Origin: Candidatus Iainarchaeum sp.
GTDB taxonomy: Archaea > Iainarchaeota > Iainarchaeia > Iainarchaeales > CSSED10-239
Length of the DNA stretch: 32,000 nucleotides
Direction: 5' to 3'
Assembly: GCA_028700115.1 (NCBI GenBank)
Contig: JAQVTI010000004.1
Span: forward strand, 25,585-57,584
Below the pieces are notes generated by a model. The model had not been told where the DNA came from. It saw only the letters and a program-made list of their open reading frames with translations, and did no database searches. A program made the translations under genes and the position numbers. Numbering within the stretch: position 1 is the stretch's first letter; every line of letters begins with the position of its first letter. Of the stretch, positions 3,838 to 32,000 are shown in pieces.

Positions 3838-3918
3838 AATTAATTCCTTTAAAAATTGTAAAATATAAAATATTTATAATCTATTATATTTATAATTGTT
3901 TTGTATATTTTTATAAAT

Positions 3919-8447: not shown

Positions 8448-8475
8448 AATATTTATTTAAATTTATATAAATTAA

Positions 8476-9649: not shown

Positions 9650-9997
9650 ATGATTTATAAAATTGAAAAAAACAAAATTATTTTTAAAAAAATTAAACTC
9701 GCATTAAATCTTGGACAAATGAGAGGCTTAATGTTTTACCCAAGATCTAAATTTAATTTTGCATTAATTTTTGATAGAAGTTATGAAGACAAAATTAATT
9801 CTTCTCTTCATATGTTTTTTGTATTTTTTCCAATTGATGTTTTATTTTTAAATTCTAATAAAGAAATAGTTGATATTAAATTTAATTTTAGACCTTTTAG
9901 ATTTTATATTCCTAAAGAAAAAGCAAGATATGTTATTGAACTTCCTTGTTTAAAAAAAAATAAGCAATTAAAAATTAAACAAAAAGTTAATTGGTGA
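9650..9997 (+). CDS. DUF192 family protein
   Basis: MRGLMFYPR...LHMFFVFFPIDVLFLNSNKEIVDI...ARYVIELP matches the DUF192 pattern (GLM, Mxxxxx[PI]xD[IV]xF, YVLE). Confidence 0.6.
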   Translation: MIYKIEKNKIIFKKIKLALNLGQMRGLMFYPRSKFNFALIFDRSYEDKINSSLHMFFVFFPIDVLFLNSNKEIVDIKFNFRPFRFYIPKEKARYVIELPCLKKNKQLKIKQKVNW

Positions 9998-10114: not shown

Positions 10115-13100
10115 ATGATATATAATTTTAATAAAAAAATATCAATATCCCCATTAATTGCAGTAATTTTAATAATTTTAGTTGCATCAGTTTTAACTGG
10201 TGCAATTTTATCTTGGTCTAAATCCTCTATTAAAAATTCACTTTCAGATTCTTCTCAAATTTCTAATCAAAGTTTAAATATTTTAGAATGTAAGGATATT
10301 TATCTAAAAGTAGAGTCATTTACATATTATTCTGATTTAAATTATTTTAATTTACTTGTAACAAACACATCTAGTTATAAATTACAAAACCCACAAATAA
10401 CTATTTTAGGGATTGATAGTTTGGGAGAAGATATTAGACTTACAGGTAATTTTAATTCATCTTTAGATAAAGGAGAAACTAAAGTTTTTTCTACAAACTC
10501 AGTTGATTTTTATTTTTCTTTTCAAACACATGAAGTTTCTGATCTAAATTCAGATAATATTTCAGAAATTACATTTGTTTTTCAAACATGCCCTACAAAT
10601 ATTTTATATTTTAAAGATTGGGATATTATAGGTGCGATTGTAAGTGGTGAAACAACTCCAGTTGCTTTATTTGTTTTAGGTTTACATTATCTTTTTAATG
10701 AAGGAAGTGGAACTATTGTTAATGATTTATCTGATAATTCTTTAGATGGAGATTTAAATAGTGGTTTTTGGCAAACAAATGAAGTTGATATTAATTTTTT
10801 AAAATTAGATAATAGTTATAGGGATTCTTTAATAGTTGATGCAAATTTAAATGGTCTAGAAGATGATTCTGGATATAGTTATACTTTTACAAATTCAGGA
10901 TCTGTTGCTTCAATTAACCAAAATGGAGAGGCTATGGCTAGAGATTTTGATGGGGTTAGTGATTATTTAATAATTAATTCTCCAATTAAAGAAGATAAAT
11001 ATCCATTAACAGTTTCATTTTGGATAAATGCAGATTCATGGACTACAAATTATTATGCAGCAGGAGATTTATATTATTCTTGGCTTATAAATAAAAGGGA
11101 TAATGGTACAGATAGATGTTGGCAGTTTATGTTGTCTGATGGATATCCAAGAGTTGATATGTTTAATGATGCAGGAGATGGAATTGATGGAGATTTACAA
11201 TCTAATCAAATTATAACTTTAGAAGAATGGGTGCATATTCTTTTAACAACTGGAGGTCAAACAGGAGATTCTGCAAAAATATATCAAGATGGTGAATTAG
11301 TTTCTGAAGTAACTTTAACAGGAGATAGGCATTTAAGTTCAAGAGAAGTTGTAATTGGTGCTGCTGGTTGGTCTTTTGATTTATTTAATTTTGATGGAGA
11401 TATTTCTGATGTTAAGATTTGGAATAAAGAGCTTAGTGAAAGTGAAGTTAAAAGTGTGTATAATGAACAAAAATCAGATTATGTTACTTCAAATGATTCT
11501 AATAGTTTAGATTTGTCTGATGGGTTTACAATAAATGCATGGGTTAATACAAACAATTTAGATGAACAAACAATTGCTTCAAAAGAAAGTTTTAATACAA
11601 GTTTGTCTTCTGCAGATTTTGAAACATTTGATTTACAAACAATAAGTTCTAGTTATACTGGTTATTTTGATGAATATTTCGATGGGAGATATGTTTATTT
11701 TTTACCTTATCATAATGGATCTGTATATCATGATAAATTTTTTAGATATGATACTACAAAAGATTTTATTTCTTCTTCAAGTTATGAATTTTTTGATTTA
11801 AGTACAGTTAATTCAAAATGTACTGGATTTACAGGAATTTCTTCTGATGGTGATTATTTATATTTAAGTACCTATTCAGGAAGTATTAATGGATGTTTTT
11901 TAAAATATGATTTAAATTCTTCTTTTACATCTTCATCTAGTTATGAATTTATGGATTTAACTACTTTAGATTCTAGTTATAAAGGTTTATTTAGTAGTTT
12001 ATTTGATGGAAGATATGTTTATATGTTAGTATATAATAATGGTAGTTATACTGGTAAGATCATAAGATATGATACTTTATCTGATTTTACATCTTCATCT
12101 AGTTATATTGTTTTTGATTTATCTACAATTAATTCTTTGTATAAAGGATATGCTTCAATGATTTTTGATAATAGATATATTTATTTTATACCTTTTCATA
12201 ATGGAGTTAGACAGGGTAATTTTTTAAGGTATGATACATATGAATCTTTTACAGATTCATCAAGTTATGAATATTTTAATTTAGAAACTATAAATTCTAA
12301 TTATAAAGGATTTATTGGAGGTGTTTTTGATGGAACTTATGTTTATCTTGTGCCTTATACAAATGGTGATTATTTTTCAAGTGTTGTTAGATATGATACT
12401 TCTTTAGATTTTGATAATTCTAAAAGTTATTCTGTATTTGAATTAACTAATTTAAATTCAAATTATAAAGGATATAGAAGTGCTGTTTTTGATGGGAGAT
12501 ATGTTTATTTTGTGCCTCATAATAATGGATCCTATCATGGAAATTTAATAAAATATGATATTTCTAAAGATTTTTTAGAAAATTCTAGTTATTCTGTATT
12601 TGATACTTCTAGTTTAAATTCTGGTTTTAAAGGTTTTTTTGGTGGGCTTTATGATGGTAAATATTTATATTTGCAAGGTTATAGTGATCGATCTACTGGA
12701 ATTGTTGGAAGATATGATACTAGAGAAAATAATAATTTTAATTTTAAAATAAATTCATCTTCTCAAGATGGTATTAGTCAATCTAAACAAGGAATTAAAT
12801 TTAATTTAGATACAAATGAAGGTTATTATCAATTGTTTGATAATAATTATACTGAAACTGGTTGGCATATGTATTCTGCAAGTTATGATAATAATTTAAT
12901 GAAAATATATTATGATGGTAATCTTTCAAAAAGTAAACAAGTAAGTGGAGCTATAACTAGTACCATTTTAGATGATTTAATAATTGGAAAAACAAATACT
13001 GGTTTTTATGGACTTGATGGAAATATTTCTGATTTTAAAATATATGAAGAAGCTTTATCTGATGAAAATATTTCTGATTTATATGATCAAAATATAAATG

Positions 13101-13765
13101 ATTATCCTTCTAGTCCTTTTGGTTCACATCCAACTTTAGAAGAAGATTTAGTTTCTTATTATTCATTTGATGGAAACGCAGAAGATTCAAAAGGAACAAA
13201 TGATGGAATTTCTAATAGTGTTAATTATTCAACTATGAATGGAATAATAAATAGTGGTGCTGAATTTAATTCTAACAATGATAGTTATATTCAATATTCT
13301 TCAATAATAACTCCTAAAGGTGAAAAAAGTATTTCTATTTGGTTAAAAACTTCTCAAACTAGTTGGTGTAGTATTTTTAAAAATAATAGTGATGGTACTC
13401 AAAGTTATGGTGTTTCAATATATGGTTCTGGACATGTTGAACTTTCTCAAGCATCTTCAATTAAAGTTTTAGAAATTTCTCCTGTAGGTGATTTAAGAGA
13501 TGGAAATTGGCATCATTTAGTGTTTACTTGGGATGGAACTACTAATTCAGATACAGTTAAATTATATATTGATGGAATTTTAAATAATCAAAATACTGCA
13601 AATAATACTGAAACAGTAACTCCTTCATATAATTTAATTATAGGTAGATATACTAATGTTTATGATTATGATGGAGATATAGATGAAGTTGGTATTTGGG
13701 AAAGAGCTTTAACTCAAAAAGAAGTAATGGATATTTACAATCTTGGAAATGGGCTTTCTAGATAA
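10115..13765 (+). CDS. modular type IV pilin-like surface protein: class III signal peptide and pilin head, three LamG-like domains, 7 x ~54-aa repeat block
   Basis: N-terminus NKKIS/ISPLIAVILIILVASVLTGAILSW (archaeal Pilin_N type). Three LamG-type endings: FDGDISDVKIWNKELSESEV, LDGNISDFKIYEEALSDENI and YDGDIDEVGIWERALTQKEV. Confidence 0.75.
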   Translation: MIYNFNKKISISPLIAVILIILVASVLTGAILSWSKSSIKNSLSDSSQISNQSLNILECKDIYLKVESFTYYSDLNYFNLLVTNTSSYKLQNPQITILGIDSLGEDIRLTGNFNSSLDKGETKVFSTNSVDFYFSFQTHEVSDLNSDNISEITFVFQTCPTNILYFKDWDIIGAIVSGETTPVALFVLGLHYLFNEGSGTIVNDLSDNSLDGDLNSGFWQTNEVDINFLKLDNSYRDSLIVDANLNGLEDDSGYSYTFTNSGSVASINQNGEAMARDFDGVSDYLIINSPIKEDKYPLTVSFWINADSWTTNYYAAGDLYYSWLINKRDNGTDRCWQFMLSDGYPRVDMFNDAGDGIDGDLQSNQIITLEEWVHILLTTGGQTGDSAKIYQDGELVSEVTLTGDRHLSSREVVIGAAGWSFDLFNFDGDISDVKIWNKELSESEVKSVYNEQKSDYVTSNDSNSLDLSDGFTINAWVNTNNLDEQTIASKESFNTSLSSADFETFDLQTISSSYTGYFDEYFDGRYVYFLPYHNGSVYHDKFFRYDTTKDFISSSSYEFFDLSTVNSKCTGFTGISSDGDYLYLSTYSGSINGCFLKYDLNSSFTSSSSYEFMDLTTLDSSYKGLFSSLFDGRYVYMLVYNNGSYTGKIIRYDTLSDFTSSSSYIVFDLSTINSLYKGYASMIFDNRYIYFIPFHNGVRQGNFLRYDTYESFTDSSSYEYFNLETINSNYKGFIGGVFDGTYVYLVPYTNGDYFSSVVRYDTSLDFDNSKSYSVFELTNLNSNYKGYRSAVFDGRYVYFVPHNNGSYHGNLIKYDISKDFLENSSYSVFDTSSLNSGFKGFFGGLYDGKYLYLQGYSDRSTGIVGRYDTRENNNFNFKINSSSQDGISQSKQGIKFNLDTNEGYYQLFDNNYTETGWHMYSASYDNNLMKIYYDGNLSKSKQVSGAITSTILDDLIIGKTNTGFYGLDGNISDFKIYEEALSDENISDLYDQNINDYPSSPFGSHPTLEEDLVSYYSFDGNAEDSKGTNDGISNSVNYSTMNGIINSGAEFNSNNDSYIQYSSIITPKGEKSISIWLKTSQTSWCSIFKNNSDGTQSYGVSIYGSGHVELSQASSIKVLEISPVGDLRDGNWHHLVFTWDGTTNSDTVKLYIDGILNNQNTANNTETVTPSYNLIIGRYTNVYDYDGDIDEVGIWERALTQKEVMDIYNLGNGLSR
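11618..12727 (+). repeat. seven tandem ~54-aa (~162-nt) coding repeats, possibly a beta-propeller
   Basis: Units begin at aa 502, 557, 610, 664, 718, 772 and 826. Consensus: Y.xFDLxTxNSxYKGxxxxxFDGRYVYxVPxxNGxxxGxxxRYDTxxDFxxSSS. Confidence 0.8.
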
Positions 13766-13772
13766 AAATATA

Positions 13773-13782
13773 TTTTATAAAT
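13773..13782 (+). promoter_or_regulatory. TATA-box-like element ttttataaat upstream of pilin gene 2
   Basis: It lies inside a ~85-nt block (13766-13850) that is nearly identical to 15042-15125. Its centre is about 27 nt before the ATG at 13806, consistent with a leaderless or very short-leader mRNA. Confidence 0.5.
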
Positions 13783-13805
13783 ATTTTCTTTTATCTTAAT
13801 AGTAT

Positions 13806-15041
13806 ATGTTATATAAAGTTAAATCAAAAAAAGCAATTTCTCCTGTAATTGCAATTATTTTTATAGTTCTAATTGCAGCGATTTTAACTGGAGCTATGCT
13901 TTCTTGGTCTAAATCTTCAACTAAAGATAAATTAGAAATAACTTCTAAAGAATCAAGACAAATAGTTGATGATTTAACTTGTAGTGATATAGAATATTCA
14001 ATTGAAGATGTTGTAATTGATACTAGAACAAAAGATTTTAATTTTTTATTTTTTAATAATTCAACAATTAAACTTTATAACCCAAAGATAACTATTTTAG
14101 GAAAAAGTTTATCTGGTGAAGACTTAAGATTTGTTGGAGAGTTTAATTCTTCTATAGATAAAATGGAAAGTAAAACTTTTTCAACAACTTCTGATTTTAA
14201 TTATTCTTATCAATCTCATGAAACTGATCAATTAGATGTTGATTCAATTGAAGAAATTACAATTGTTTTTAATACATGTCCAAATAAAATATTTTTAATA
14301 GATACATATGAAACAATTACTTCTGCAGAACCATCTCCTTATTTTAGCGGGCATTCAACTTTAGATAATAATATAGTTGCATATTATTCATTTGATGGAA
14401 ATGCAGAAGATCAAGTTGGAACTTGTGATGGAACAGTTAGTGGTGCATTAAATAGTTCTAGTTATGGTTTAATTAATCAAGGTTATAGATTTGATGGGGA
14501 TTGGGATTATATTAATTTAGGAAAAAATAATGCAATTGAATCTTTATTTGATCCAGGAAATAGTTTTTCTATATCTTTTTGGATGTATTCTTTAGAGAAT
14601 GTAACTTCTAACTGGAGATGGGTTTTAAGTAAAGCATATACTTCTCATACACCTCCATATTATCAATTTGATTTTAAATTAAATAGTATTGGATCTATGT
14701 CTTCTGTACTTTATAATGATTCTGTATCTATTTATTTAGGAGATTCTGATTCTAGTTATGAAGAATATAATAATTGGAATTATGTTGTAATTACAGTTGA
14801 TTTAACTAATAATATATATAATATATATATTAATAATAATTTATTAGTAACAGATACTACTCCTGAAGGAACTTATACAAATTATGATACTGAACTTGCA
14901 ATTGGTAGAAATATTAAATTTAATAATAATTCAGTTTATGATTTTTATGGTTATATTGACGAAGTTGGAATTTGGGAAAGAGAATTAACCCAAGATGAAG
15001 TTTCTGCATTATATAACTCTGGAAATGGTCTTTCTAGATAA
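13806..15041 (+). CDS. modular type IV pilin-like surface protein: class III signal peptide and pilin head plus one LamG-like domain
   Basis: KSKKA/ISPVIAIIFIVLIAAILTGAMLSW; the head module is paralogous to genes 1 and 3. LamG features are YYSFDGNAED, FSISFWMY and YGYIDEVGIWERELTQDEV. Confidence 0.75.
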   Translation: MLYKVKSKKAISPVIAIIFIVLIAAILTGAMLSWSKSSTKDKLEITSKESRQIVDDLTCSDIEYSIEDVVIDTRTKDFNFLFFNNSTIKLYNPKITILGKSLSGEDLRFVGEFNSSIDKMESKTFSTTSDFNYSYQSHETDQLDVDSIEEITIVFNTCPNKIFLIDTYETITSAEPSPYFSGHSTLDNNIVAYYSFDGNAEDQVGTCDGTVSGALNSSSYGLINQGYRFDGDWDYINLGKNNAIESLFDPGNSFSISFWMYSLENVTSNWRWVLSKAYTSHTPPYYQFDFKLNSIGSMSSVLYNDSVSIYLGDSDSSYEEYNNWNYVVITVDLTNNIYNIYINNNLLVTDTTPEGTYTNYDTELAIGRNIKFNNNSVYDFYGYIDEVGIWERELTQDEVSALYNSGNGLSR

Positions 15042-15048
15042 TGATATA

Positions 15049-15058
15049 TTTTATAAAT
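15049..15058 (+). promoter_or_regulatory. TATA-box-like element ttttataaat upstream of pilin gene 3
   Basis: Same conserved cassette as at 13773-13782. Its centre is about 26 nt before the ATG at 15080. Confidence 0.5.
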
Positions 15059-15079
15059 GTTTTCTTTTATTTTATTATT

Positions 15080-17731
15080 ATGTTATGTAAAGTTAAATCA
15101 AAAAAAGCAATTTCTCCAATAATAGCAGTAATTTTAATTATTTTAATTGCATCTGTTTTAACTGGAGCTATTTTATCTTGGTCTAAATCTTCAACTAAAG
15201 AAAATATGGCTTTAACCTCTAAGGAGTCAAGAGAAATTGTAAGTGATTTAACTTGTAATGATTTAGTTTATTATATTGATTCTATAGATTTTAGATATGC
15301 AACAAATGATTTTACTTTTTTAATAGTAAATAATTCTTCACAAAAACTTTTTTTTCCAAAAATAACTGTTTTTGGAAAAACTTTATCTGGGGAAGATATT
15401 AAATGGGTTGGAGAGTTTGAAGATTATATAGATAAAGCACAAACTAAATCTTTTTTAACATCTTCTGAGAATTTCACATATACTTCTCAAACACATACAA
15501 CAAATATAGATGAAAATAGTTTAAGTGTAAATCTTGTTTTTCAAACATGTCCTAATAAAATTATAACAATTAATAGTTATGATGTTATTTATCCTGTTTG
15601 TGGAGATTCTTTATGTGAAGGAGATGAAACTTCTGAAAATTGTTATTCAGATTGTGGAAGTTGTGGGGATAGTGTTTGTTCTGCTCCTGATGAAAATTTA
15701 GATACTTGTGCAATTGATTGTGCGGTTTGTGGAGATGGCATTTGTTCTTCAAGTGTAGAAAACACAGCTTCATGTTTACAAGATTGTCCTCCTAATTATT
15801 TTTCTTCAACTTGGAATACAGCAACTACTGGATATGGTTCAAGTGCTTCTAATCAAATAAATCTTCCTTTAGTTTCAAGTGGAACTTATGATTTTAATGT
15901 AAATTGGGGAGATGGTTCAGTTTCACAGATTACTTCATATAATGATCCTGATAAAACACATACTTATGCTTCTTCAGGGATTTATGATGTGAATATGTGG
16001 GGAACTATTGAAGGTATTTCTTTTGAATATTCTAGTGATAGGTATAAATTAACTGAAATTTCTCAATGGGGAGATTTTAGTCCTAAAAATAGTAAATTTA
16101 GTTATTGTGAAAATTTAGATATTACAGCAACTGATATTTTGGATTTAACTGGAGTTACAAGATTAATTTGTTTTTTTTGTAATTGTTCAAGTTTAACTCA
16201 AATTCCAAATATAGACCAATGGGATGTTTCAAATATTACAGATATGTCTAGTTTGTTTGCTGGTACTTCTTTTAATCAAGATCTTTCTTCTTGGGATGTT
16301 TCAAATGTTACTGATATGTATGGGATGTTTTCAAATACAAATAATTTTAATCAACCTTTAAATAGCTGGGATGTTTCTAGTGTAACTGATATGGGATCTT
16401 TATTTTTAAATGCAGATGCTTTTAATCAACCTTTAAATAACTGGGATGTTTCTAATGTTACTAATATTAATAATATGTTTAATAATGCAGATGCTTTTAA
16501 TCAACCTTTAAATAATTGGGATACATCAAATGTAACTACACTATATGGAACTTTTGCTGAAACTTTAGCATTTAACCAATCTTTAAATGATTGGAATACA
16601 TCTAAAGTAACAACTTTTGAAAAAATGTTTTATGGAAGTGAATCTTTTAATGGTGCAGTTAATAATTGGGATACATCTAATGTGACTACCATGAATGGTA
16701 TGTTTCAAAATGCTTATGTTTTTAATCAACCTTTAAATGATTGGAATGTTTCAAATGTAACTAATATGGGTTATATGTTTAAAGAAGCATATGCTTTTAA
16801 TCAAGATTTAGATCAATGGGATATTTCTAGTTTAAGTAATATTTTTCAAATGTTTTCAGGAGCAATTAATTTTGATGGAAATATTTCAACATGGGATGTT
16901 TCAAATATAACTTATCTTGGTGATTTATTTAATTGTAATATATATAGTCAACATCTTGGTACTTTTATTACAGGTTGTCATTTTAATCAAGATATTTCTT
17001 CTTGGGATGTTTCAAATGTTACTAGTATGTCTGGTTTGTTTGAAAATCAAGTAGATTTTAATCAACCTTTAAATGATTGGGATGTTTCAAATGTAACTAA
17101 TTTGAGTGGTATGTTTAATGGTGCTAAATCTTTTAATCAACCTTTAAATGATTGGAATACTTCTAAAGTAACTAATATTAGACATATTTTTTATAATGCA
17201 AATTCATTTAATCAAGATTTAAATAATTGGGATACTTCAAATGTTTCAGATATGTCTTATGTGTTTATGATGGCTAATTTATTTAATGGAGATGTATCTA
17301 CATGGGATACTTCAAATGTAACTTCAATGGATTGGATGTTTTATTCTGCTGATTCATTTAATCAACCTTTAAATAATTGGGATACTTCTAAAGTTACTGA
17401 AATGGATTGGATGTTTTATTCTGCAGATAATTTTAATCAACCTTTAAATAACTGGGATGTTTCAAATGTAACTGATATGAGTTTTATGTTTAATGATGCT
17501 AAATCTTTTAATCAAGATATAGGTGATTGGAATACTTCTAAGGTTACTAATATGAATAGTATGTTTTATTCTTTAGATTATTTTAATCAAGATCTTTCTT
17601 CTTGGGATATTTCTAAAGTGACTTCTAGTTTTACTGCCTTTTTTTATGGAACTAGTGTGTCAGCAGCAAACTGTCAAGCAATGGCAACTGCTTGGGGAAA
17701 AACTTGTGCAGATTTAGGATGTACTTGTTAG
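15080..17731 (+). CDS. modular type IV pilin-like surface protein: class III signal peptide and pilin head, 3 CGDxxC Cys-rich repeats, DUF285/BspA-like repeat array
   Basis: MLCKVKSKKA/ISPIIAVILIILIASVLTGAILSW. The ORF opens at 15041, but the conserved promoter and 5' cassette shared with gene 2 place the start at 15080. Downstream are a VNWGDGS...HTY segment and then repeated FNQPLNNWDVSNVTxMxxMF units. Confidence 0.75.
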   Translation: MLCKVKSKKAISPIIAVILIILIASVLTGAILSWSKSSTKENMALTSKESREIVSDLTCNDLVYYIDSIDFRYATNDFTFLIVNNSSQKLFFPKITVFGKTLSGEDIKWVGEFEDYIDKAQTKSFLTSSENFTYTSQTHTTNIDENSLSVNLVFQTCPNKIITINSYDVIYPVCGDSLCEGDETSENCYSDCGSCGDSVCSAPDENLDTCAIDCAVCGDGICSSSVENTASCLQDCPPNYFSSTWNTATTGYGSSASNQINLPLVSSGTYDFNVNWGDGSVSQITSYNDPDKTHTYASSGIYDVNMWGTIEGISFEYSSDRYKLTEISQWGDFSPKNSKFSYCENLDITATDILDLTGVTRLICFFCNCSSLTQIPNIDQWDVSNITDMSSLFAGTSFNQDLSSWDVSNVTDMYGMFSNTNNFNQPLNSWDVSSVTDMGSLFLNADAFNQPLNNWDVSNVTNINNMFNNADAFNQPLNNWDTSNVTTLYGTFAETLAFNQSLNDWNTSKVTTFEKMFYGSESFNGAVNNWDTSNVTTMNGMFQNAYVFNQPLNDWNVSNVTNMGYMFKEAYAFNQDLDQWDISSLSNIFQMFSGAINFDGNISTWDVSNITYLGDLFNCNIYSQHLGTFITGCHFNQDISSWDVSNVTSMSGLFENQVDFNQPLNDWDVSNVTNLSGMFNGAKSFNQPLNDWNTSKVTNIRHIFYNANSFNQDLNNWDTSNVSDMSYVFMMANLFNGDVSTWDTSNVTSMDWMFYSADSFNQPLNNWDTSKVTEMDWMFYSADNFNQPLNNWDVSNVTDMSFMFNDAKSFNQDIGDWNTSKVTNMNSMFYSLDYFNQDLSSWDISKVTSSFTAFFYGTSVSAANCQAMATAWGKTCADLGCTC
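15599..15793 (+). repeat. three tandem ~21-22-aa Cys-rich coding repeats (CGDxxC-x7-8-C-x3-C)
   Basis: CGDSLCEGDETSENCYSDC, CGDSVCSAPDENLDTCAIDC and CGDGICSSSVENTASCLQDC. Confidence 0.8.
16201..17645 (+). repeat. about 19 tandem ~25-aa (~75-nt) DUF285-type coding repeats (bacterial surface protein 26-residue repeat)
   Basis: 19 occurrences of W[DN][VTI]S[NKS] spaced 24-25 aa apart, with one longer unit. Most carry an N-[VI]-T sequon. Confidence 0.85.
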
Positions 17732-24745: not shown

Positions 24746-25663
24746 CTATTTTAGAATATGTTTTAGATTCTTTTTTTCAATATTTCTTTTAATTATTTCT
24801 TCTATTATATTTGTTATAGAAATTATTTTTATTTTTTTAGTTTTTTCATAATAGTTTGATATTGAATAAATTTCTTTAATTACAGAATTATTAATTAAGC
24901 TAATTGCTTTTTTATCAAAAATTCCATGAGTTACAATTGCATATATATCTTTTGCGCCTTTAAATGTTAAAAATTTAGAATAATTTATAATATTTTTTCC
25001 AGAATATATACTATCTGATATTATTAAAATATCTTTATTATTTACATTTCCTTTAATTTGAAAATTAATATTTCCATTTATTTCTTCTTTTATAGGAAAT
25101 ATAGTTTCTGTTTTTAATTTATTTGCAATTTCTGTTGATATTTCTTGCATTTCATAATCAATTGTTGATATTATTAAATTTTTATTTTCTTTAAAATTAT
25201 CATTTAATATTTTGGAAAATATATTTGTTATTGGAATATTGTATAATGGTATTTTAAAATAAAAAGATATTTTTGGGGAATAAAGTCCAAAAGTATATAT
25301 TTTATCAATATTTATATTTTCTAAAAGTCTTGAAAATAAATTAAAATTTAATTTATATTCTGTTTTATATTTTATTTTTGTATAAGGCATATATGAAGTT
25401 ATAAGATATATTTTTTCAGCACCCTCTTTTCTTAAAGCATCACATACAAACATTAATTCCATTATATATTCATTTACTGGGGGGATAATATTATATATTA
25501 AAAAAACTTTTTTATAATTTAAATAACTTTTAATATCAACACTTGTCTCATGTCCTTGTACATAACTTATATTCATTTCACCTATAGGAATATCTAATTT
25601 TTGAGAAATTGTATTTGCAATTGATCTTTCTTTATTTCCTGATATTATAATATATTCATCCAT
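24746..25663 (-). CDS. ribose-phosphate pyrophosphokinase (Prs) family homologue with degenerate catalytic motifs
   Basis: PVNEYIMELMFVCDALRKEGA and AIVTHGIF...INNSVIKEI align well with Prs. However, PYxxYARQDRK reads SYMPYTKIKYK, DLH reads GLY, and the PRPP loop DDxxDTGGT reads SDSIYSGKN. Confidence 0.55.
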   Translation of the reverse strand: MDEYIIISGNKERSIANTISQKLDIPIGEMNISYVQGHETSVDIKSYLNYKKVFLIYNIIPPVNEYIMELMFVCDALRKEGAEKIYLITSYMPYTKIKYKTEYKLNFNLFSRLLENINIDKIYTFGLYSPKISFYFKIPLYNIPITNIFSKILNDNFKENKNLIISTIDYEMQEISTEIANKLKTETIFPIKEEINGNINFQIKGNVNNKDILIISDSIYSGKNIINYSKFLTFKGAKDIYAIVTHGIFDKKAISLINNSVIKEIYSISNYYEKTKKIKIISITNIIEEIIKRNIEKKNLKHILK

Positions 25664-25799
25664 ATTTTTTCATAAGCTTTTTTCAAATAAATTATTTTTA
25701 TAAAAAACTAATATATTAAAGATAATAATATTTATATATGTTAGAGATTATCTAAATTGGCATATATTTTTAAATATTTATACATTAAATATATTTAGA

Positions 25800-27548
25800 A
25801 TGTATCTAAAATTAAAAAAAAAAGATATAAATGAAATTCCAAAACAAATTTTTACTAATTGTCCATATGGTTTTTCAAAAAAAGATATAAAAAAAGTTTT
25901 TGCATGTAAAAACTGTAAAGATGCACCTTGTCTTCATGCTTGTAAAAAAGGAGCAATTTATTTTTCTTCAAAAGGAATAATTTCAATCGATCCTGATAAA
26001 TGTGATGGTTGTGGGGAATGTGTAAAAGCATGTAAAGAAAATGCAATTATTTTAAAAAATAATAAAGCTTATAAATGTGATTTGTGTTCACAAATTTCAT
26101 TTGCAATGTATTGTTATAAAAATTATCCTGAATTTTTAGAACTTGTAGATAATCAATCTATAGATGATTCTTTAGAAATAATTAATAAAAATTTAGGATT
26201 TAAGATTATTGAACATAAAGATATTTTAAGGAATTTATCTAAAAATGTATATGAAAAAAAAGATTCTTCAAAAATTTATTTATTTAAACAAAATATATTA
26301 AGTGTAGATGAAATTGAAATAATTAATTCTGTTTTAGATAATTACAAAGAAAATAATAAAGATTTAAAAGATATTAGTGCAATTAAAATTAAAGAAGATT
26401 TAGAAAAAGAATTAATTGATTTTTGTTTTATAAATTCTTTAGAATTAGATTCTGATCAATTTAATTATATTCTTGAAACTATTTTTAATATTTTATATAA
26501 ATATGGACCTTTATCAGAAGCATTAGATGATTATGATCTTGAAGAAATTGTAATTTTAGATATTAATAAAGAAATATATGTTTATCATAAATATTATGGT
26601 TGGTTAATTAGTAATTTAGTTTATCTTTCAAAAGATCTTTTAAGAGAACTTATTAATAAATTATCTTGGTCTTCAAATAAATTTATAACTTTAAAAAATC
26701 CAATATTAAATACATACTTAGAAGATAATTCAAGAATGAATGCTGTAATTTCTCCTATTACAAATAATGTTAGTATAACTATAAGAAAATTTTCTGAAAA
26801 ACCATTTACTTTAAAAGATTTAATTTCTACAAAAACTATTTCTTTAGAAGCACTTGCTTTTTTAAGATTATGTTTTTTAACAGATTCAAATATTCTTGTT
26901 GTTGGGAATACAGGTTCTGGAAAAACAACTACATTAAATACACTTTTAAATTTTATTCCTTCTACAGAAAGATTTATTGTTGTTGAAGATGTTAGAGAGA
27001 TTAATTTTAAGGCTACTCATGTTGTAAATCTTTTGGTAAATGAAGATTTGTCAGTTACTCTTTCTGATTTAGTAATTAATACCTTAAGAATGAGACCAGA
27101 TAGAGTAATAATTGGAGAAATTAGATCTAAGACAGAAGTTATTTCTTTTATGGAATCAATACTTTGTGGTCAAGCAAAAGGAACATATTCTACATTTCAT
27201 TCAAATTCGTCATTAGAAAGTATTAGGCGAATAATGTCTTATGGTATTTTAGAATCTGATCTTTTATCTTTAGATATAATTATTAATCAAAAAAGATTTA
27301 ATAAATATACACAAGAAGGATATAAAGATATTAGGAAAATAATAGAAATTTGTGAAGTTGTTGATAAAAATGGAAAAATTTTTTTAAATATTTTATATAA
27401 ATATAATATTTTTAAAGATGTTTTAGAAAAAATAAATAATCCTATAAAATTAATGAATAAATTTAAATTTTCATTTGGGATTAAAAATATTAAAGAATAT
27501 GATAAATTATTTAAAGATAGTTGTAAGTTTATAGAAAATGAACTATAA
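25800..27548 (+). CDS. FlaI/VirB11/GspE-family secretion ATPase with an N-terminal Cys-rich 4Fe-4S ferredoxin-like domain
   Basis: Cys pattern C36-x2-C39-x4-C44-x3-C48 and C68-x2-C71-x2-C74-x3-C78, plus C93-x2-C96. Walker A is VVGNTGSGKTTTLN (26904-26930 encodes GNTGSGKTT), Walker B is RPDRVIIGEIR, and the His box is GTYSTFHSNS. Confidence 0.8.
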   Translation: MYLKLKKKDINEIPKQIFTNCPYGFSKKDIKKVFACKNCKDAPCLHACKKGAIYFSSKGIISIDPDKCDGCGECVKACKENAIILKNNKAYKCDLCSQISFAMYCYKNYPEFLELVDNQSIDDSLEIINKNLGFKIIEHKDILRNLSKNVYEKKDSSKIYLFKQNILSVDEIEIINSVLDNYKENNKDLKDISAIKIKEDLEKELIDFCFINSLELDSDQFNYILETIFNILYKYGPLSEALDDYDLEEIVILDINKEIYVYHKYYGWLISNLVYLSKDLLRELINKLSWSSNKFITLKNPILNTYLEDNSRMNAVISPITNNVSITIRKFSEKPFTLKDLISTKTISLEALAFLRLCFLTDSNILVVGNTGSGKTTTLNTLLNFIPSTERFIVVEDVREINFKATHVVNLLVNEDLSVTLSDLVINTLRMRPDRVIIGEIRSKTEVISFMESILCGQAKGTYSTFHSNSSLESIRRIMSYGILESDLLSLDIIINQKRFNKYTQEGYKDIRKIIEICEVVDKNGKIFLNILYKYNIFKDVLEKINNPIKLMNKFKFSFGIKNIKEYDKLFKDSCKFIENEL

Positions 27549-27646
27549 ATATATTTAAAAGCTTTTTAGATTATGATTTGATATATATTTAAAATTTTTA
27601 TAATAATATTATTTAGAAAATATATTATAATTTATATGGTAATTAT

Positions 27647-28798
27647 ATGAAATTAGAATTAATTGATTATATTAAATCAGAACGAAAGAAAAAAGTTGAA
27701 GATAAATATATTAAACAAGCTTTATATAATTATGGTTTTACGAAAAAAGAAATTGAAGATTCATTTAAATATATAAAAATAGAAGAAAGTAAATTATTAT
27801 TTAATTTAAAAAGTTCTTTTTCTAAAAATAACAATATAAAAAAAGATAATAATTCTAATTTAAAAGATAAAAATGATACTAAAATACAATTAGATAATAA
27901 TATTCAAAGTAATTTAAAAAAATCTAAATCTAAAAATCTAAAAAGAGAGAAAGATATTAAAATAGATAATAATTATTTAAAATTTAATAAAGATTCTTAT
28001 AGTATAAAATTTTTTTTAGTTTTATTGATTATTATAATTTTTGGGGTTTTATTATATTTTATTTTTATAAAAGAATTATTTCTATTTAATTCTTTAGAAA
28101 AAAATAGTAATTTTGAAATAGAATATATAAATTCATTTAATGATAATGTTTTTGTTTCTGGAAATATTAAAATAAGATCTTTAATAAATAGTTATGATTT
28201 TAATTATTCTGAAAAAATTATTTTAAAAAATATTTCTGAAACAGAATTTAAAAAATATTTTAAAGAATATTTAGAATTAAATATTTATTCTCAACCAATT
28301 ATTATTACAAAATATAATTCGGATTATAGGGATATTTTTAATATTTCAAAAAAGGATGAAAATATAGATTTTTTTAATAAAACTTATGAATTTAATGAAA
28401 TATTATATTCTTTAAAAGAAAAAGGTTTTGAAAAAGAAATTGAATTCATTTTAGATTCTAAAAATTTATTAAATAATTATCATTATTTATTAGAAATAGA
28501 ATATAATAATGTTATTTATAAAATTATTGAAATTATATTAAATAAAAATAATACTCTTTATATTAAAACTTATGATTTAAGAGGATATACAAAAAGTAAA
28601 GAATTAAATAGTTTTCAAGTTGTGGATTATGTTTTAAAAAATACAAATATATTAGATAGTTTGTTATTTAATATTACAAATATTGGAGAAGATTTTTGTG
28701 TAGATTTAGATGAAATTACATGTAAATCTAAAATTGGTTGTTTTCCAGAATATGAATTTGATATTTATGGAAATATGACTTATATTAATTGTAGATAA
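27647..28798 (+). CDS. hypothetical single-pass membrane protein (cytoplasmic Lys-rich N-terminus, extracytoplasmic C-terminal domain with 4 Cys at the end)
   Basis: One TM segment (FFLVLLIIIIFGVLLYFIFI) at about aa 124-146. No class III signal motif. It lies between the ATPase and the platform genes. Confidence 0.45.
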   Translation: MKLELIDYIKSERKKKVEDKYIKQALYNYGFTKKEIEDSFKYIKIEESKLLFNLKSSFSKNNNIKKDNNSNLKDKNDTKIQLDNNIQSNLKKSKSKNLKREKDIKIDNNYLKFNKDSYSIKFFLVLLIIIIFGVLLYFIFIKELFLFNSLEKNSNFEIEYINSFNDNVFVSGNIKIRSLINSYDFNYSEKIILKNISETEFKKYFKEYLELNIYSQPIIITKYNSDYRDIFNISKKDENIDFFNKTYEFNEILYSLKEKGFEKEIEFILDSKNLLNNYHYLLEIEYNNVIYKIIEIILNKNNTLYIKTYDLRGYTKSKELNSFQVVDYVLKNTNILDSLLFNITNIGEDFCVDLDEITCKSKIGCFPEYEFDIYGNMTYINCR

Positions 28799-28840
28799 TG
28801 TATTTATTTTAAAAAATATGATTTTTTATAGGTTAAAAAT

Positions 28841-29578
28841 ATGTTAGATTTTTCTTTTTTAAAAAAGCAAAAAAAAATAATTTTTCAATTTATAATTTCT
28901 TTTTTTATAATCTTTTTTATGTATCTTTGTTTTTCAATTTATTATGATTTTTTTAATATAAATTTTATAATATATATATTTTTTGCAACATTTTTAATGT
29001 TTTTTTCAATAAAATATTTTATAAAAAAAATAAAAGAACATAGTTATAATCAAAAAATAATTTCAGAAATTCCATTTTTTTTGATAAATATTTCTAATGA
29101 TTTAGAAAGAAATTTATCTTTAAAAACATGTCTTGAAAATAGAAGTGATAATACTATTATTGGTAAAAAAATTAGAACTGCATTAAATCTAGTTAAAAAT
29201 TATGGATTTACTTTAAATCAAGCATTATTAAAAGTTTCAAAAGAAAGTAAAGATTTAAGTGTTGTTTTTTATCAATTAGAAGATGTTTTTTCACTTGGGG
29301 GTAAAGATAGAGTTAGTTCTTTAAGAATTTTATGTGATTCTTTTATTGAAAAGCAAATGAATAATTTTAGAAGTTCTTCTTCTAAAATTAATTTTTTATC
29401 ATTAATATTTATTGTTTGTTCTGCAATTGTTCCTGCAATATTTTTGATTTTTACACTTGTAGGAAGTAATTTTTTAGCAATGTCTTTTAGTGCTTTTACA
29501 ATTATATTTTTTACTGTAATTATTTTTCCATTAATAGATATGTTTATTCTTTTGATTATGAAATCAAAATTTGTTTAG
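28841..29578 (+). CDS. half-size FlaJ/TadB/TadC-like platform membrane protein (locus 2)
   Basis: Two N-terminal TM helices, a cytoplasmic helical domain (IPFFLINISNDLERNLSLKTCLE...LNQALLKVS) and C-terminal TM helices. Confidence 0.5.
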   Translation: MLDFSFLKKQKKIIFQFIISFFIIFFMYLCFSIYYDFFNINFIIYIFFATFLMFFSIKYFIKKIKEHSYNQKIISEIPFFLINISNDLERNLSLKTCLENRSDNTIIGKKIRTALNLVKNYGFTLNQALLKVSKESKDLSVVFYQLEDVFSLGGKDRVSSLRILCDSFIEKQMNNFRSSSSKINFLSLIFIVCSAIVPAIFLIFTLVGSNFLAMSFSAFTIIFFTVIIFPLIDMFILLIMKSKFV

Positions 29579-29694
29579 ATTATAAAAATTTATTATAGGG
29601 TGATTTTATAAAAAAAATAAGTTTATTAAAGTTTTTTCAAAATATATTTTTTTATAAGACTAATTTAAATAGAAAGTTATATATTTTAGATTTT

Positions 29695-30513
29695 ATGATT
29701 TATTTTAAAGAACTAATTTTATTTATTTTATTTTCTCTTATTTTATTTTCTATTTTATTTTTTTTAAATATAAATATATTTTTAATATTAATAATTTTAT
29801 TTTGTTTATTTTTTGCATATATTATTTTAAAAGATATTTTTATAAAATATTTAAATGTTTTGAAAACAACTAAATTAGAAGAAGAATTAATTTTAGAATT
29901 ATTAAGGCTTTCATCATTACCTAAAGTAAATGATTTAAAGTTTATTATAGAAAAGTTAAGTAAATCAGATACTAAAATTTTGTCAAAAGAATTTATTTTA
30001 ATTTCTTCTAAAATTAAAAAAGGGCATTTAGCATCTTCTTCTTTAGATTTAATTAAGAATAAATATCATTCTAGATTTATTTCTAATTTTATAGATTTAT
30101 TAGAATTAATTGTAAAATCAGGAACTGTATCTATAAAAGATTTTAGAAATTTAGCAAATAATTTTTTAAAATCAAAAGAAATTATAAATGAACGAAAATC
30201 TATTCTCTTAATGCAAAAATATACTATTATTTTTGCAGGAGGAATAATTGTCCCAGCAATATTAGGTATTGTTGTTTCTTTAGTTTCAAAACTTTCTTCT
30301 TCTTTAGATATTACATTATTAGGGCTTAGTTCTAATTTAAATTTATATAATGTAAGTTATTATTGTTCAATTATATATATTATAGAATATATTATTATTT
30401 CTTCAATATATTTATCTTTTTTAGAAGATAATTCTAAAAAATTTGTAGTATATCTAGTTTTATTTTTACCAGTAAGTATTTTAATCTTTTTTACTCTTAA
30501 ATATTTAATTTAA
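29695..30513 (+). CDS. half-size FlaJ/TadB/TadC-like platform membrane protein (locus 2)
   Basis: Same topology as the other platform-like genes: TM helices, a ~120-aa cytoplasmic domain, then TM helices. Confidence 0.5.
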   Translation: MIYFKELILFILFSLILFSILFFLNINIFLILIILFCLFFAYIILKDIFIKYLNVLKTTKLEEELILELLRLSSLPKVNDLKFIIEKLSKSDTKILSKEFILISSKIKKGHLASSSLDLIKNKYHSRFISNFIDLLELIVKSGTVSIKDFRNLANNFLKSKEIINERKSILLMQKYTIIFAGGIIVPAILGIVVSLVSKLSSSLDITLLGLSSNLNLYNVSYYCSIIYIIEYIIISSIYLSFLEDNSKKFVVYLVLFLPVSILIFFTLKYLI

Positions 30514-30551
30514 TTTTTAGAATTAATATTTAATTTTTATAGTGACAAAAT

Positions 30552-31151
30552 ATGATTGAAGAAATATTACTCTTTTTTGATTTTTTTTTATCAAATATAA
30601 ATTATTTTAGTATTTTTTTTTTAATGTTAATTGAAAGTTCATTTATCCCATTTCCATCAGAATTAATTATGATACCTGCAGGATATCTTGCATTTAAAGG
30701 GAATTTAAATATATTTTTAGTAATTTTTTTTGGGATATTAGGATCTATTATTGGGGCTTTAATAAATTATTTTATTGGTAAATTTTTAGGGATCCATTTT
30801 ATTTTAAAAAAGAAAAAATTTTTATTTATAAATTTTAAAACTTTAAATAAATCTGAAATTTTTTTTAGAAAATATGGGAACATTACAACTTTTATAGGTA
30901 GATTAATACCTGCTGTTAGGCAATATATTTCTGTTCCTGCTGGTATTTTTAAAATGAATATTTCTAAATTTATATTGTATACTTTTTTTGGTTCTTTTAT
31001 ATGGAATGTATTTTTAGTTATTTTAGGTTTTTTTATAGGAGAAAGTATTTCTGCATCTATTATAAATATTTATAATCTTGTAATTTTAATTGTTTTAGGA
31101 ATTGTAATATTATTTGTATTTATTTTTTATATTTTTAAAAATAAAAGATAG
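30552..31151 (+). CDS. DedA/VTT (SNARE-associated) family membrane protein
   Basis: LIESSFIPFPSELIMIPAGYLA and FIGRLIPAVRQYISVPAGI are the two DedA signature segments. Confidence 0.75.
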   Translation: MIEEILLFFDFFLSNINYFSIFFLMLIESSFIPFPSELIMIPAGYLAFKGNLNIFLVIFFGILGSIIGALINYFIGKFLGIHFILKKKKFLFINFKTLNKSEIFFRKYGNITTFIGRLIPAVRQYISVPAGIFKMNISKFILYTFFGSFIWNVFLVILGFFIGESISASIINIYNLVILIVLGIVILFVFIFYIFKNKR

Positions 31152-31233
31152 TTTAAGACATCTATTTTTAAATGTTTTTGTATAAATATTTATTTATTAT
31201 ATATCTAGTTTTTAAAGTTTAATTTAACTTTTT

Positions 31234-31305
31234 GCCCTAGTAGTCTATCGGTTAGGATGCGACCCTGTCAAGGTCGCGGGACGGGTCCGACTCCCGTCTA
31301 GGGCG
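31234..31305 (+). tRNA. tRNA-Asp (anticodon GTC), 72 nt, no encoded CCA
   Basis: Hand-folded cloverleaf. Acceptor stem gccctag/ctagggc, anticodon stem cgacc/ggtcg with loop ctGTCaa, T stem acggg/cccgt. A T-run follows. Confidence 0.85.
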
Positions 31306-31425
31306 CTTTTTTTAATATTTTTATAAATACCTTTAAATACTTTTATCTACTTTAATATTTATAGTTAAAGCAATTTCTTTTTAATAATTTTAAAAATTAA
31401 ATGTTTTATCTGTTTAATGTATTTT

Positions 31426-31508
31426 GCAGAGGTGGCGGAGTGGTCAAACGCACTAGCCTGCTAAGCTAGAGTCTTTGGACTACACGGGTTCGAATCCCGT
31501 CCTCTGCG
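31426..31508 (+). tRNA. tRNA-Ser (anticodon GCT), type II with a long variable arm, 83 nt, no encoded CCA
   Basis: Acceptor stem gcagagg/cctctgc, anticodon stem ctagc/gctag with loop ctGCTaa, variable arm agtc-tttg-gact, T arm acggg-ttcgaat-cccgt. Confidence 0.85.
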
Positions 31509-32000
31509 TAACCGGTTTCGCTCGGTTAATGCGCAATGGTTGTAAGCAGTTGACACCCAATGGTAAGCAGTTTGCTGTAAGTAGCTTTAAACAGTGGCTT
31601 TATAACAAAAAGTTTGTAAAAGACTATGAAGTTGGATTAATTAACAAATTATCCTTATTATTTGTAAAAGAGCAAAAACATACGTATACTTTTTCTGAGC
31701 TATCTGATATAATTAAAATAAAATTAGAACAGATAAATGAAGACAAATATCTTAATAGATTAGTAAGACAGATCTTAAATTATTTGTTAGAAAGTGATAT
31801 TGTATCTGATAATGATGTGTCTTATATTAAAAAGAAATTAAAAACTAAGCAATATAATGCTGATAACTATGTACCTACAGACACTGAAATACAGAAAAAT
31901 CTTTCAAAGTTAACTACAAATAATAGATTAGTGTCATTAGTGTCATTAGTGTCGGGTGTAAGGAAGGTAGAATTGAACTATTTGATAAAGAACTTAAATA
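31509..32000 (+). mobile_element. probable left edge of a tRNA-Ser-integrated element (virus, plasmid or island)
   Basis: An integrase gene abuts the tRNA 3' end. The DNA after 31508 is visibly less AT-biased than the rest of the window. Confidence 0.5.
31529..32000 (+). CDS. tyrosine recombinase / integrase, N-terminal part (runs off the window end)
   Basis: Absent from the ORF track because no stop lies in the window. The frame is open from 31457 to 32000 with its first ATG at 31529. YVPTDTEIQKNL...LVSLVSGVRKVELNYLIKNL matches the start of the catalytic domain (xP[TS]xxEixxLl...xxTGxRxxELxxL), including the first catalytic Arg context. Confidence 0.6.
   Translation, partial: MRNGCKQLTPNGKQFAVSSFKQWLYNKKFVKDYEVGLINKLSLLFVKEQKHTYTFSELSDIIKIKLEQINEDKYLNRLVRQILNYLLESDIVSDNDVSYIKKKLKTKQYNADNYVPTDTEIQKNLSKLTTNNRLVSLVSLVSGVRKVELNYLIKNLN

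Follow-up and report, generated by a model that had tools for sequence, protein, structure and literature searches.

An iron–sulphur-fused pilus motor cassette without pilins and its relation to a motif-dead pilus locus in Candidatus Iainarchaeum

Two pilus-type loci in one window

We analysed two pilus-type assembly loci on a 32,000-nucleotide stretch of DNA from Candidatus Iainarchaeum sp. (hereafter the window; G000:C1:25585–57584, GC content about 13–28%). The main subject is locus 2, which consists of four co-directional open reading frames (ORFs) within positions 25800–30513 of the window: a secretion ATPase with an N-terminal iron–sulphur domain, a single-pass membrane protein and two half-size platform proteins. 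The other, locus 1, contains a prepilin peptidase, an ATPase paralogue, two platform halves and a DUF192 gene, and is followed by three giant pilin-headed proteins (Table 1). An earlier note on this sequence described locus 2 as a pilin-less assembly locus with an active-looking ATPase and locus 1 as a pilin-bearing locus with a motif-dead one. It proposed that the two are functionally interdependent, with the locus 2 ATPase powering assembly of locus 1 substrates, or that locus 2 serves pilins encoded elsewhere.

The source genome (G000), that of a DPANN archaeon with ~21% GC, is an assembly of 965 kb in 47 contigs that is 89% complete. Genomes, contigs and retrieved loci or contigs are denoted by G-, C- and L-numbers, respectively (C40, C38, C26, C25 and C33 are contigs of G000), genera by g1, g2 and g4, and families by f1, f17 and f24; the window's own family is represented by 21 genomes. 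The locus 2 ATPase was searched for in 41 relatives from 20 families, and profile counts across the order (i.e. of the pseudo-ATPase, the iron–sulphur fusion and the ISPLIA-type pilins) cover 196 genomes. Catalytic motifs were checked in 21 locus 2-type ATPases and 12 aligned locus 1 orthologues. ATPase phylogeny is based on a maximum-likelihood tree of 39 ATPases with support from the Shimodaira–Hasegawa-like approximate likelihood ratio test (SH-aLRT).

Table 1. Features of the two pilus-type loci and their neighbours in the window (positions are those of the window; aa, amino acids; nt, nucleotides)
Feature	Position	Strand	Basis or remark
Locus 2 motor, PilT/VirB11-type secretion ATPase, 582 aa	25800–27548	+	PF00437, Fer4, Fer4_6, motifs
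N-terminal iron–sulphur domain of the locus 2 ATPase	~residues 21–105, nt ~25860–26114	+	Fer4, Fer4_6
Locus 2 single-pass membrane protein, 383 aa	27647–28798	+	lineage-specific ORFan, between ATPase and platform genes
Locus 2 platform half A′, TadB/EpdJ-like, 245 aa	28841–29578	+	profile–profile comparison
Locus 2 platform half B′, TadC/EpdK-like, 272 aa	29695–30513	+	PF00482, hhalign
FlaK/PibD-type prepilin peptidase, locus 1	3901–4650	+	PF06847 2.2e-11; PF01478 weak
Locus 1 pseudo-ATPase, 943 aa, long low-complexity N-terminal extension	4768–7599	+	
Locus 1 platform half A	7599–8447	+	PF00482 5.2e-07
Locus 1 platform half B	8476–9612	+	PF00482 8.3e-05
DUF192 gene, end of conserved locus 1 core	9650–9997	+	PF02643 5.8e-11
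Three giant pilin-headed proteins, ...ISP(L/V/I)IA... class III signal type	10115–17731	+	
UppS (cis-prenyltransferase) homologue	3154–3837	-	conserved neighbour upstream of locus 1
Prs-like gene, divergent, upstream of locus 2	24746–25663	-	neighbour kept in genera g1, g2 and g4
DedA/VTT-family membrane protein (UptA-like)	30552–31151	+	PF09335 9.3e-21; NF052604 2.5e-31, below its cut-off
tRNA-Asp and tRNA-Ser, then open frame	31234–32000		

The locus 2 motor and its platform

The locus 2 ATPase matches the T2SSE family (PF00437) with an E-value of 1.3e-35 and 123.2 bits (cut-off 24.9). Its Walker A (GNTGSGKTT), Asp box (VVEDVRE), Walker B (RPDRVIIGEIR) and His box (TFHSNS) motifs are all intact, and the same four are nearly invariant across the 21 locus 2-type ATPases. 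It reaches none of three equivalog models: the scores are 157.6 bits for FlaI/ArlI (NF058587, cut-off 550), 158.5 bits for VirB11 (TIGR02788, cut-off 249.95) and 139.3 bits for the TadA family (TIGR03819, cut-off 373.15). The nearest solved structures by sequence are afGspE of Archaeoglobus fulgidus (PDB 2OAP, 1.3e-42), CpaF (3.5e-36) and FlaI (4e-30), and a Foldseek fold search concurs, with afGspE as the best match (4.6e-31). Bacterial CpaF-like genes are the nearest non-archaeal relatives in a profile search of genome contigs, whose matches were chiefly remote DPANN and bacterial CpaF-like loci rather than close relatives, and public records of locus 2-type ATPases carry automatic names only, e.g. 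"CpaF family ATPase/ferredoxin". An AlphaFold model confirms the motor fold with a predicted local distance difference test (pLDDT) score of 76.8 overall, but of only 54–61 around residues 91–120, i.e. at the end of the iron–sulphur domain and in the linker, and domain packing in the model is not reliable.

The N-terminal part of the ATPase contains a ferredoxin-type domain that scores above the cut-offs of both Fer4 (29.5 bits, cut-off 21.1) and Fer4_6 (31.8 bits, cut-off 25). It has CxxCxxCxxxC-type motifs, and 12 Cys residues are invariant in nine aligned sequences, a pattern that would fit two classical clusters and a possible third. The G007 copy (L021/L166, G007:C12, 2296–4134) has lost four Cys and retains the other eight. 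Following the classical dicluster ferredoxin topology, we take the four missing residues to be exactly the ligands of one cluster, and their joint loss supports, without proving, the assignment of the domain. The fusion is patchy in the order, with an estimated 41 or so of the 196 genomes as counted from matches in ATPase-sized frames of ~440–670 amino acids. An iron–sulphur domain on a pilus motor (FlaI/CpaF/TadA) was not found described in the literature searched.

The two platform halves are recognised mainly by comparison with a complete pilus locus on contig C40 of the same genome (described below). Half A′ has no match in a Pfam search; its family profile aligns in hhalign with half A of the C40 locus (probability 98.5%) and with half B′ of locus 2 (98.8%), and the C40 half A itself scores 9.5e-17 on the T2SSF family (PF00482). 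Half B′ scores 6.4e-05 and 23.4 bits on PF00482, just below the cut-off of 25.2, and aligns with the T2SSF-positive C40 half B (hhalign, 98.8%). Locus 2 thus co-encodes one ATPase with two platform paralogues, and the same arrangement is found in relatives.

Neither a peptidase nor a pilin accompanies these genes. A profile search detects no A24 peptidase in locus 2, and no class III signal-like start is present in positions 25600–31500, where all ORFs of at least 40 amino acids were scanned and the N-termini of those of at least 30 amino acids were inspected. As a positive control, the scan of ORFs of at least 40 amino acids recovered two of the three locus 1 pilins. Class III signal pilins or a peptidase occur elsewhere in G000: at the C40 locus, at locus 1 and on C26, C25 and C33. 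A scan of locus 2 for bacterial promoters and terminators gave 74 sites against 65 expected, which is uninformative for an archaeal sequence of 20% GC. ORFs, profiles and motifs therefore agree with the gene content that the earlier note had read from the letters, and its observation that peptidase and class III signal proteins are missing is upheld by both the profile search and the N-terminus scans.

The 383-aa membrane protein is a fast-evolving ORFan outside the conserved cassette. It has one hydrophobic segment (about residues 123–145, read from the translation), belongs to no family in Pfam and NCBIfam searches, and has a sole homologue among 5.8 billion proteins, on a sister contig, at 50% identity (the ATPase there is 77% identical). 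It is missing at the same position in G004, G011, G002, G009, G015, G018, G010, G014, G007 and further contigs. The possibility that it is a core accessory protein or a disguised pilin was rejected, because its segment begins only at about residue 123, it has one homologue and most orthologous cassettes do without it. The DedA/VTT gene, by contrast, lies directly 3′ of the locus 2 halves in the same nine genomes and in several metagenomic contigs.

The conserved pseudo-ATPase of locus 1

The locus 1 ATPase has no Walker A GxxGxGKT, no Walker B Glu and no His-box His, and the Asp-box Glu is replaced by Gln. All four motifs are gone in all 12 aligned orthologues, as the earlier note had supposed for the window's copy. 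These orthologues are nevertheless 37–50% identical to that copy, and the protein is therefore a conserved pseudo-ATPase. A more distant homologue in G037 has likewise lost the motifs but keeps the Asp-box Glu. The best sequence match among solved structures is again afGspE (1e-39), whose P-loop has no counterpart at the aligned position. In G015 (L053, G015:C4, 7955–11689) the peptidase, the pseudo-ATPase and DUF192 are kept and the locus 1 halves are found nowhere in the five-contig assembly; the dead ATPase is therefore retained there without its own platform. The literature searched describes no motif-dead PilB-family paralogue that is retained at a pilus locus, and it also gave nothing relevant on DUF192 with pili or on Diapherotrites pili.

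In six genomes from three genera, the locus 1 DUF192 gene is followed on its strand by pilins of the ...ISPLIA type, which are more consistently associated with locus 1 than with locus 2. In the window, the three giant pilin-headed proteins are candidate trans substrates.

Other pilus loci of the genome and paralogy

The pilus-type genes of G000 are distributed over at least seven loci and include five of the PilB family, five sets of platform genes and two for peptidases. Apart from locus 2, three intact T2SSE ATPases are present (C40:49328–51268, C38:82693–84654 and C38:160508–162817), and locus 2 is therefore not the sole possible energy source for locus 1. The C40 locus is complete: it contains an ATPase, two halves, about six small class III signal proteins of the ...KGQ/KAQ type and a 374-aa A24 peptidase (EppA-like). 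Two loci have no ATPase, i.e. the C26 locus (two halves and three small ...ISPLIA-type pilins) and the C25 locus (a 746-aa FlaJ-like protein and pilin-like genes); locus 1 is therefore not the only locus that lacks an active motor. Most relatives also have a further T2SSE ATPase of ~465 amino acids (G004:C1:316349–317299 and equivalents) that is absent from G000, which instead has a divergent 769-aa ATPase, the second of the two on C38.

Within G000, the locus 2 ATPase matches that of C40 best (1.6e-63, 39% identity). In the ATPase tree, the locus 2 clade, with members from seven families, has 100% support and falls on the side that holds the C40-type clade (SH-aLRT 98), the branching order inside that side being unresolved. 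The pseudo-ATPases branch as the sister group of the C38-type ATPases (SH-aLRT 98), although their long branches make this placement less certain. The locus 1 halves match the C26 halves in hhalign (A, 77%; B, 96.5%). Furthermore, a C38-type ATPase adjoins a C26-type half A in G037 (L068, G037:C8, where the contig edge truncates the rest) and both C26-type halves in G065 (L164, G065:C31, 2544–6871). The C38 ATPase (C38:82693–84654) and the C26 platform and pilin locus (C26:14648–18008) are one system split over two contigs.

Taken together, profile alignments, tree and gene adjacency indicate that locus 1 is a paralogous copy of the C38/C26 module whose ATPase died. Profile alignments and tree likewise identify the C40 Epd/Tad-like module as the pilin-bearing paralogue of locus 2. 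The earlier note had proposed paired phylogenies of the ATPases and platform halves, and these do not match across the two loci: locus 2 goes with C40 and locus 1 with C38/C26.

Distribution across relatives

Full-length orthologues of the iron–sulphur ATPase (48–63% identity) are present in 18 of the 21 genomes of the window's family, and in every relative inspected they are followed by two halves and the DedA/VTT gene. By E-value relative to the range of paralogues, nearly all of the 41 genomes from 20 families have a likely orthologue of the locus 2-type ATPase; in two of the sampled genomes the best match fell in the paralogue range. The ATPase and two halves lie together in six other families (with one gene between in G030 and the first half unresolved in G039), and no pilin is recognisable within ~8 kb of these cassettes.

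Locus 1 is much more restricted. The pseudo-ATPase is found in 19 of the 21 genomes of the window's family and in G037, and in ~21 of the 196 genomes of the order, where its profile in G065 matches an active C38-type ATPase. Pilin heads of the ISPLIA type are present in 35 of the 196 genomes and in three families only, a count made with a profile that may miss divergent pilins in other families. The C38-type ATPase, the C26-type platform, the ISPLIA pilins and locus 1 have one narrow range in common (families f1, f17 and f24). By these comparisons, locus 2 is much older than locus 1 and does not depend on it. A co-occurrence of the two loci beyond shared ancestry, for which the earlier note proposed a test, is not observed.

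Within the window's family, co-occurrence was considered as a test of a link and set aside, because both loci are nearly universal, the gaps fit incompleteness and only one genome is informative. The gaps (G007, G012, G019 and G020) fit completeness values of 80–85%, save that of G007, where the pilins are also gone. This genome (84% complete) keeps locus 2 and a C40-type locus and has no locus 1, C38-type ATPase or ISPLIA pilins; the other genomes of the family with matches carry 4–36 such pilin genes.

G002 presents the reverse situation. Its locus 2 ATPase (L040, G002:C2, ~6830–8590, minus strand) is interrupted by a frameshift near residue 165 and by a nonsense codon within the His box, and one conserved Cys is gone. 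The start of the first platform half seems to be missing as well. These lesions reflect either a young pseudogene or an assembly error. Locus 1 and its adjacent pilins are intact, and locus 1 can therefore persist with a damaged locus 2 ATPase. Neither situation that the earlier note named as a refutation is cleanly observed: each relative has at least one intact ATPase, and locus 2 shows no consistent linkage to pilins of its own.

Phylogeny and distribution raise the alternative that the C38-type ATPase (C38:82693–84654) serves locus 1, that locus 2 is functionally unrelated to it and that the proximity of the two loci is historical. Locus 1 would then have arisen by duplication of the C38 ATPase and C26 platform module and been turned into a non-catalytic scaffold for adhesin pilins. 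The sister relationship of the pseudo-ATPase and C38-type clades, the similarity of the locus 1 and C26 halves, the adjacency of C38-type ATPases and C26-type halves in G037 and G065, the shared range in families f1, f17 and f24 and the joint absence from G007 all argue for it. However, the long pseudo-ATPase branch weakens the placement, the C38-type ATPase already has a cognate platform (C26), and locus 1 adjoins a C38-type ATPase in none of the genomes. We regard this explanation as tenable but somewhat unlikely.

Genomic linkage of the two loci

In G011 (L039) and in a metagenomic contig from the Joint Genome Institute (JGI; L161), both loci are joined into a single contiguous, co-directional cluster with the order peptidase, pseudo-ATPase, two halves, DUF192, iron–sulphur ATPase, two halves and DedA. 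Families without locus 1 have some of the same neighbours: DUF192 lies directly 5′ of the locus 2-type ATPase in G030, close upstream of it in G039 (one small ORF between) and within 4–5 kb in G022 and G031, and UppS is near in all four. UppS is the immediate neighbour of locus 1 both in G037 and in the window's family. The last gene of locus 1 in that family is DUF192, and the platform genes of G037 are not followed by one. The contiguous arrangement looks ancestral, and the simplest history would be that locus 1 was inserted between UppS and DUF192 beside locus 2 and that the two were later separated in most lineages. In three genomes of genus g1, they are 12–21 kb apart on one contig, and in genus g4 they lie on separate contigs, even where the assembly is near-complete, as in G015 (five contigs) and G009.

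Pilin-headed genes of the ISPLIA type flank locus 2 in some relatives: five in G016/L159, one in G009 and two in L157. Genomes with such flanking genes hold 18–36 of them, and the probability of proximity by chance is roughly 0.2–0.4. With so many copies per genome chance proximity is likely, and we rejected these genes as strong evidence of a shared substrate.

This linkage is the basis of a second alternative, in which the two loci are two halves of one machine and the iron–sulphur ATPase supplies hydrolysis for the dead one, either docked on the locus 1 platform or as part of rings shared with the pseudo-ATPase, so that the giant adhesin pilins can be assembled. It would be consistent with the single cluster in G011 and L161, with the DUF192 and UppS genes near the locus 2-type ATPase in G030, G039, G022 and G031, which make locus 1 look inserted beside locus 2, with the 12–21 kb linkage in genus g1 and with the flanking pilin-headed genes; moreover, wherever both are detected, the pseudo-ATPase co-occurs with an iron–sulphur-fused locus 2 ATPase. 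However, locus 2 owns a platform pair and occurs without locus 1 in most of the order, and the locus 1 ATPase and halves are paralogous to another module whose active ATPase is present in every genome with locus 1. The separate contigs in the g4 assemblies (G015 and G009), the damaged locus 2 ATPase of G002 beside an intact locus 1 with its pilins, the loss of the locus 1 platform halves in G015 where the pseudo-ATPase is kept, and the presence of locus 2 in G007 without locus 1, C38-type ATPase or ISPLIA pilins also speak against it, as do the three other intact ATPases and the two other ATPase-less loci with platform and pilins in G000. We consider this explanation unlikely. A stricter form, in which the loci that derive from one supercluster still make up a composite machine and a redox-gated iron–sulphur ATPase is the sole motor for a platform scaffolded by a dead ring, is less likely still.

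The interdependence proposed in the earlier note, with locus 2 powering locus 1, is therefore neither shown nor excluded: contiguity in G011 and L161 is in its favour, and paralogy, distribution, G007 and G002 are against it. What can be said is that locus 1 needs some active ATPase and that locus 2 is one of several candidates. Candidate motors for locus 1 are its C38-type sister paralogue and the locus 2 ATPase; a dead ring that acts as a static scaffold might also have no motor at all.

Neighbouring genes of the cassette

The inferred ancestral supercluster is bracketed by genes for carrier-lipid (polyprenyl-phosphate) functions, i.e. UppS on the minus strand and the DedA/UptA-like gene on the plus strand (Table 1). 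Such bracketing suggests that pilus assembly could be connected with glycan-carrier recycling, e.g. in pilin N-glycosylation.

In the six other families (L045–L050: G037, G031, G039, G022, G036 and G030), the cassette has a PAC2-family gene and a protein of 1100–1500 amino acids beside it. The latter has no Pfam match, a signal-like N-terminus is visible in the G037 copy, and it may be an S-layer-like partner. Homologues of these neighbours in G000 are at C25:14305–19296 and C26:1823–2620, that of the large protein beside the ATPase-less C25 pilin and FlaJ-like locus. Just upstream of the locus 2-type ATPase, L049 (G036:C1, 5520–7460) and L048 (G022:C3, 5833–7821) encode a protein of ~650 amino acids with an N-terminal hydrophobic segment, which in the G036 copy resembles a class III signal (...KKG and a hydrophobic stretch). 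The protein may be a substrate in cis in these two lineages.

Such neighbours bear on a third alternative, in which locus 2 assembles no pilus and is instead a pilin-free Tad-like device for export or uptake (e.g. of DNA or a large surface protein, or for S-layer handling). The near absence of cis pilins across the six other families, the conserved PAC2-family and 1100–1500-aa neighbours and the ~650-aa protein in G036 and G022 are in line with this. On the other hand, genomes of the G000 type do encode class III signal proteins and two prepilin peptidases, the closest paralogue of locus 2 (C40) is a canonical pilin-bearing locus and, to our knowledge, every characterised machine with an ATPase and a T2SSF protein handles class III signal proteins. 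We therefore consider an export device improbable.

A motor cassette proposed to act in trans

The reading that we prefer, with a rough probability of 0.55, is that locus 2 is an ancient, substrate-less Tad/Epd-like assembly core that acts in trans, with C40-type pilins as its nearest partners, as a probably redox-regulated alternative motor. A cassette without substrates in cis would have to act in trans, and the possibility raised in the earlier note that locus 2 serves pilins encoded elsewhere is well supported, because the cassette is kept across the order without cis pilins or peptidase and a precedent has been described (PMC4858521).

By analogy with afGspE, CpaF and FlaI, the locus 2 ATPase would assemble as a hexamer and bind the TadB/TadC-like pair from the cytoplasmic side, and the motor would drive processed class III proteins from the membrane into a filament. 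The substrates would be encoded and processed elsewhere. The default candidates, by homology, are the ...KGQ-type pilins of the C40 locus with the EppA-like peptidase; second candidates in the window's family, by position, are the ...ISPLIA-type adhesin pilins beside locus 1. The iron–sulphur domain probably makes the motor responsive to redox state, oxygen or iron, and locus 2 would thereby be a differently regulated alternative motor.

Several observations weigh against this reading. The contiguous cluster in G011 and L161 and the 12–21 kb linkage in genus g1 would suit a tighter connection of locus 2 with locus 1-type substrates than this reading supposes, as would the ISPLIA-type genes that flank it in some relatives. 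The pilin profile may have passed over divergent pilins in other families, and substrates are assigned to locus 2 by homology or position only.

Comparison with known systems

In Euryarchaeota, a locus of an ATPase and tadC is often duplicated without a pilin locus, and the copies probably share pilins and may be regulated differently (Makarova, Koonin and Albers 2016; PMC4858521). The relation of locus 2 to the complete C40 locus is precisely of this kind. Locus 2 differs from these operons in that the pilin-less copy is more universally conserved, has two platform halves and carries an iron–sulphur domain on the ATPase. The word "ferredoxin" has no occurrence in that study, which among DPANN archaea covers only Nanoarchaeota.

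The Epd pili of Methanococcus maripaludis rely on an EpdL ATPase with two co-regulated platform paralogues, EpdJ and EpdK, both of which are required (PMC4371748). Like EpdL/J/K and the Tad core TadA(CpaF)/TadB/TadC, locus 2 co-encodes one PilT/VirB11-family ATPase with two half-size platform paralogues, the likeness to M. maripaludis being drawn from published descriptions. Unlike them, its ATPase has a 12-Cys N-terminal iron–sulphur domain and remains far under the TadA, VirB11 and FlaI cut-offs, and the locus is without cis pilins, peptidase and accessory Tad genes. As for afGspE, the locus 2 ATPase and the locus 1 pseudo-ATPase both have it as their best match; it differs from the former in having no iron–sulphur domain and from the latter in having the P-loop that the locus 1 protein has lost.

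Several ATPase-fold proteins on one platform, with a catalytic motor beside a non-hydrolysing or exchangeable partner, are known from the archaellum (ArlI with ArlH) and from type IVa pili (PilB, PilT and PilU sharing PilC). However, ArlH is KaiC-like and not a PilB paralogue, and PilT and PilU are catalytically active, unlike the locus 1 pseudo-ATPase. Pilin-less ATPase and platform loci and split pilus systems are already known. A substrate-less motor cassette across a whole order, and its ancestral juxtaposition with a dead-motor locus, are absent from the literature searched.

Biological implications

DPANN archaea are believed to rely on touching other cells, and their main candidate devices for attachment are type IV filaments. 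To predict what G000-like cells assemble, it is necessary to know which motor serves which pilins. Our results offer a testable wiring, in which locus 2 goes with C40 and locus 1 with C38/C26, together with a substrate-less motor across the order and a long-lived dead motor. If the composite machine should prove true after all, redox or iron state would control whether the giant adhesin pilins are displayed and thereby whether the cells attach to a host or a surface. An iron–sulphur domain on a pilus motor would directly link redox state to surface filaments at the protein level.

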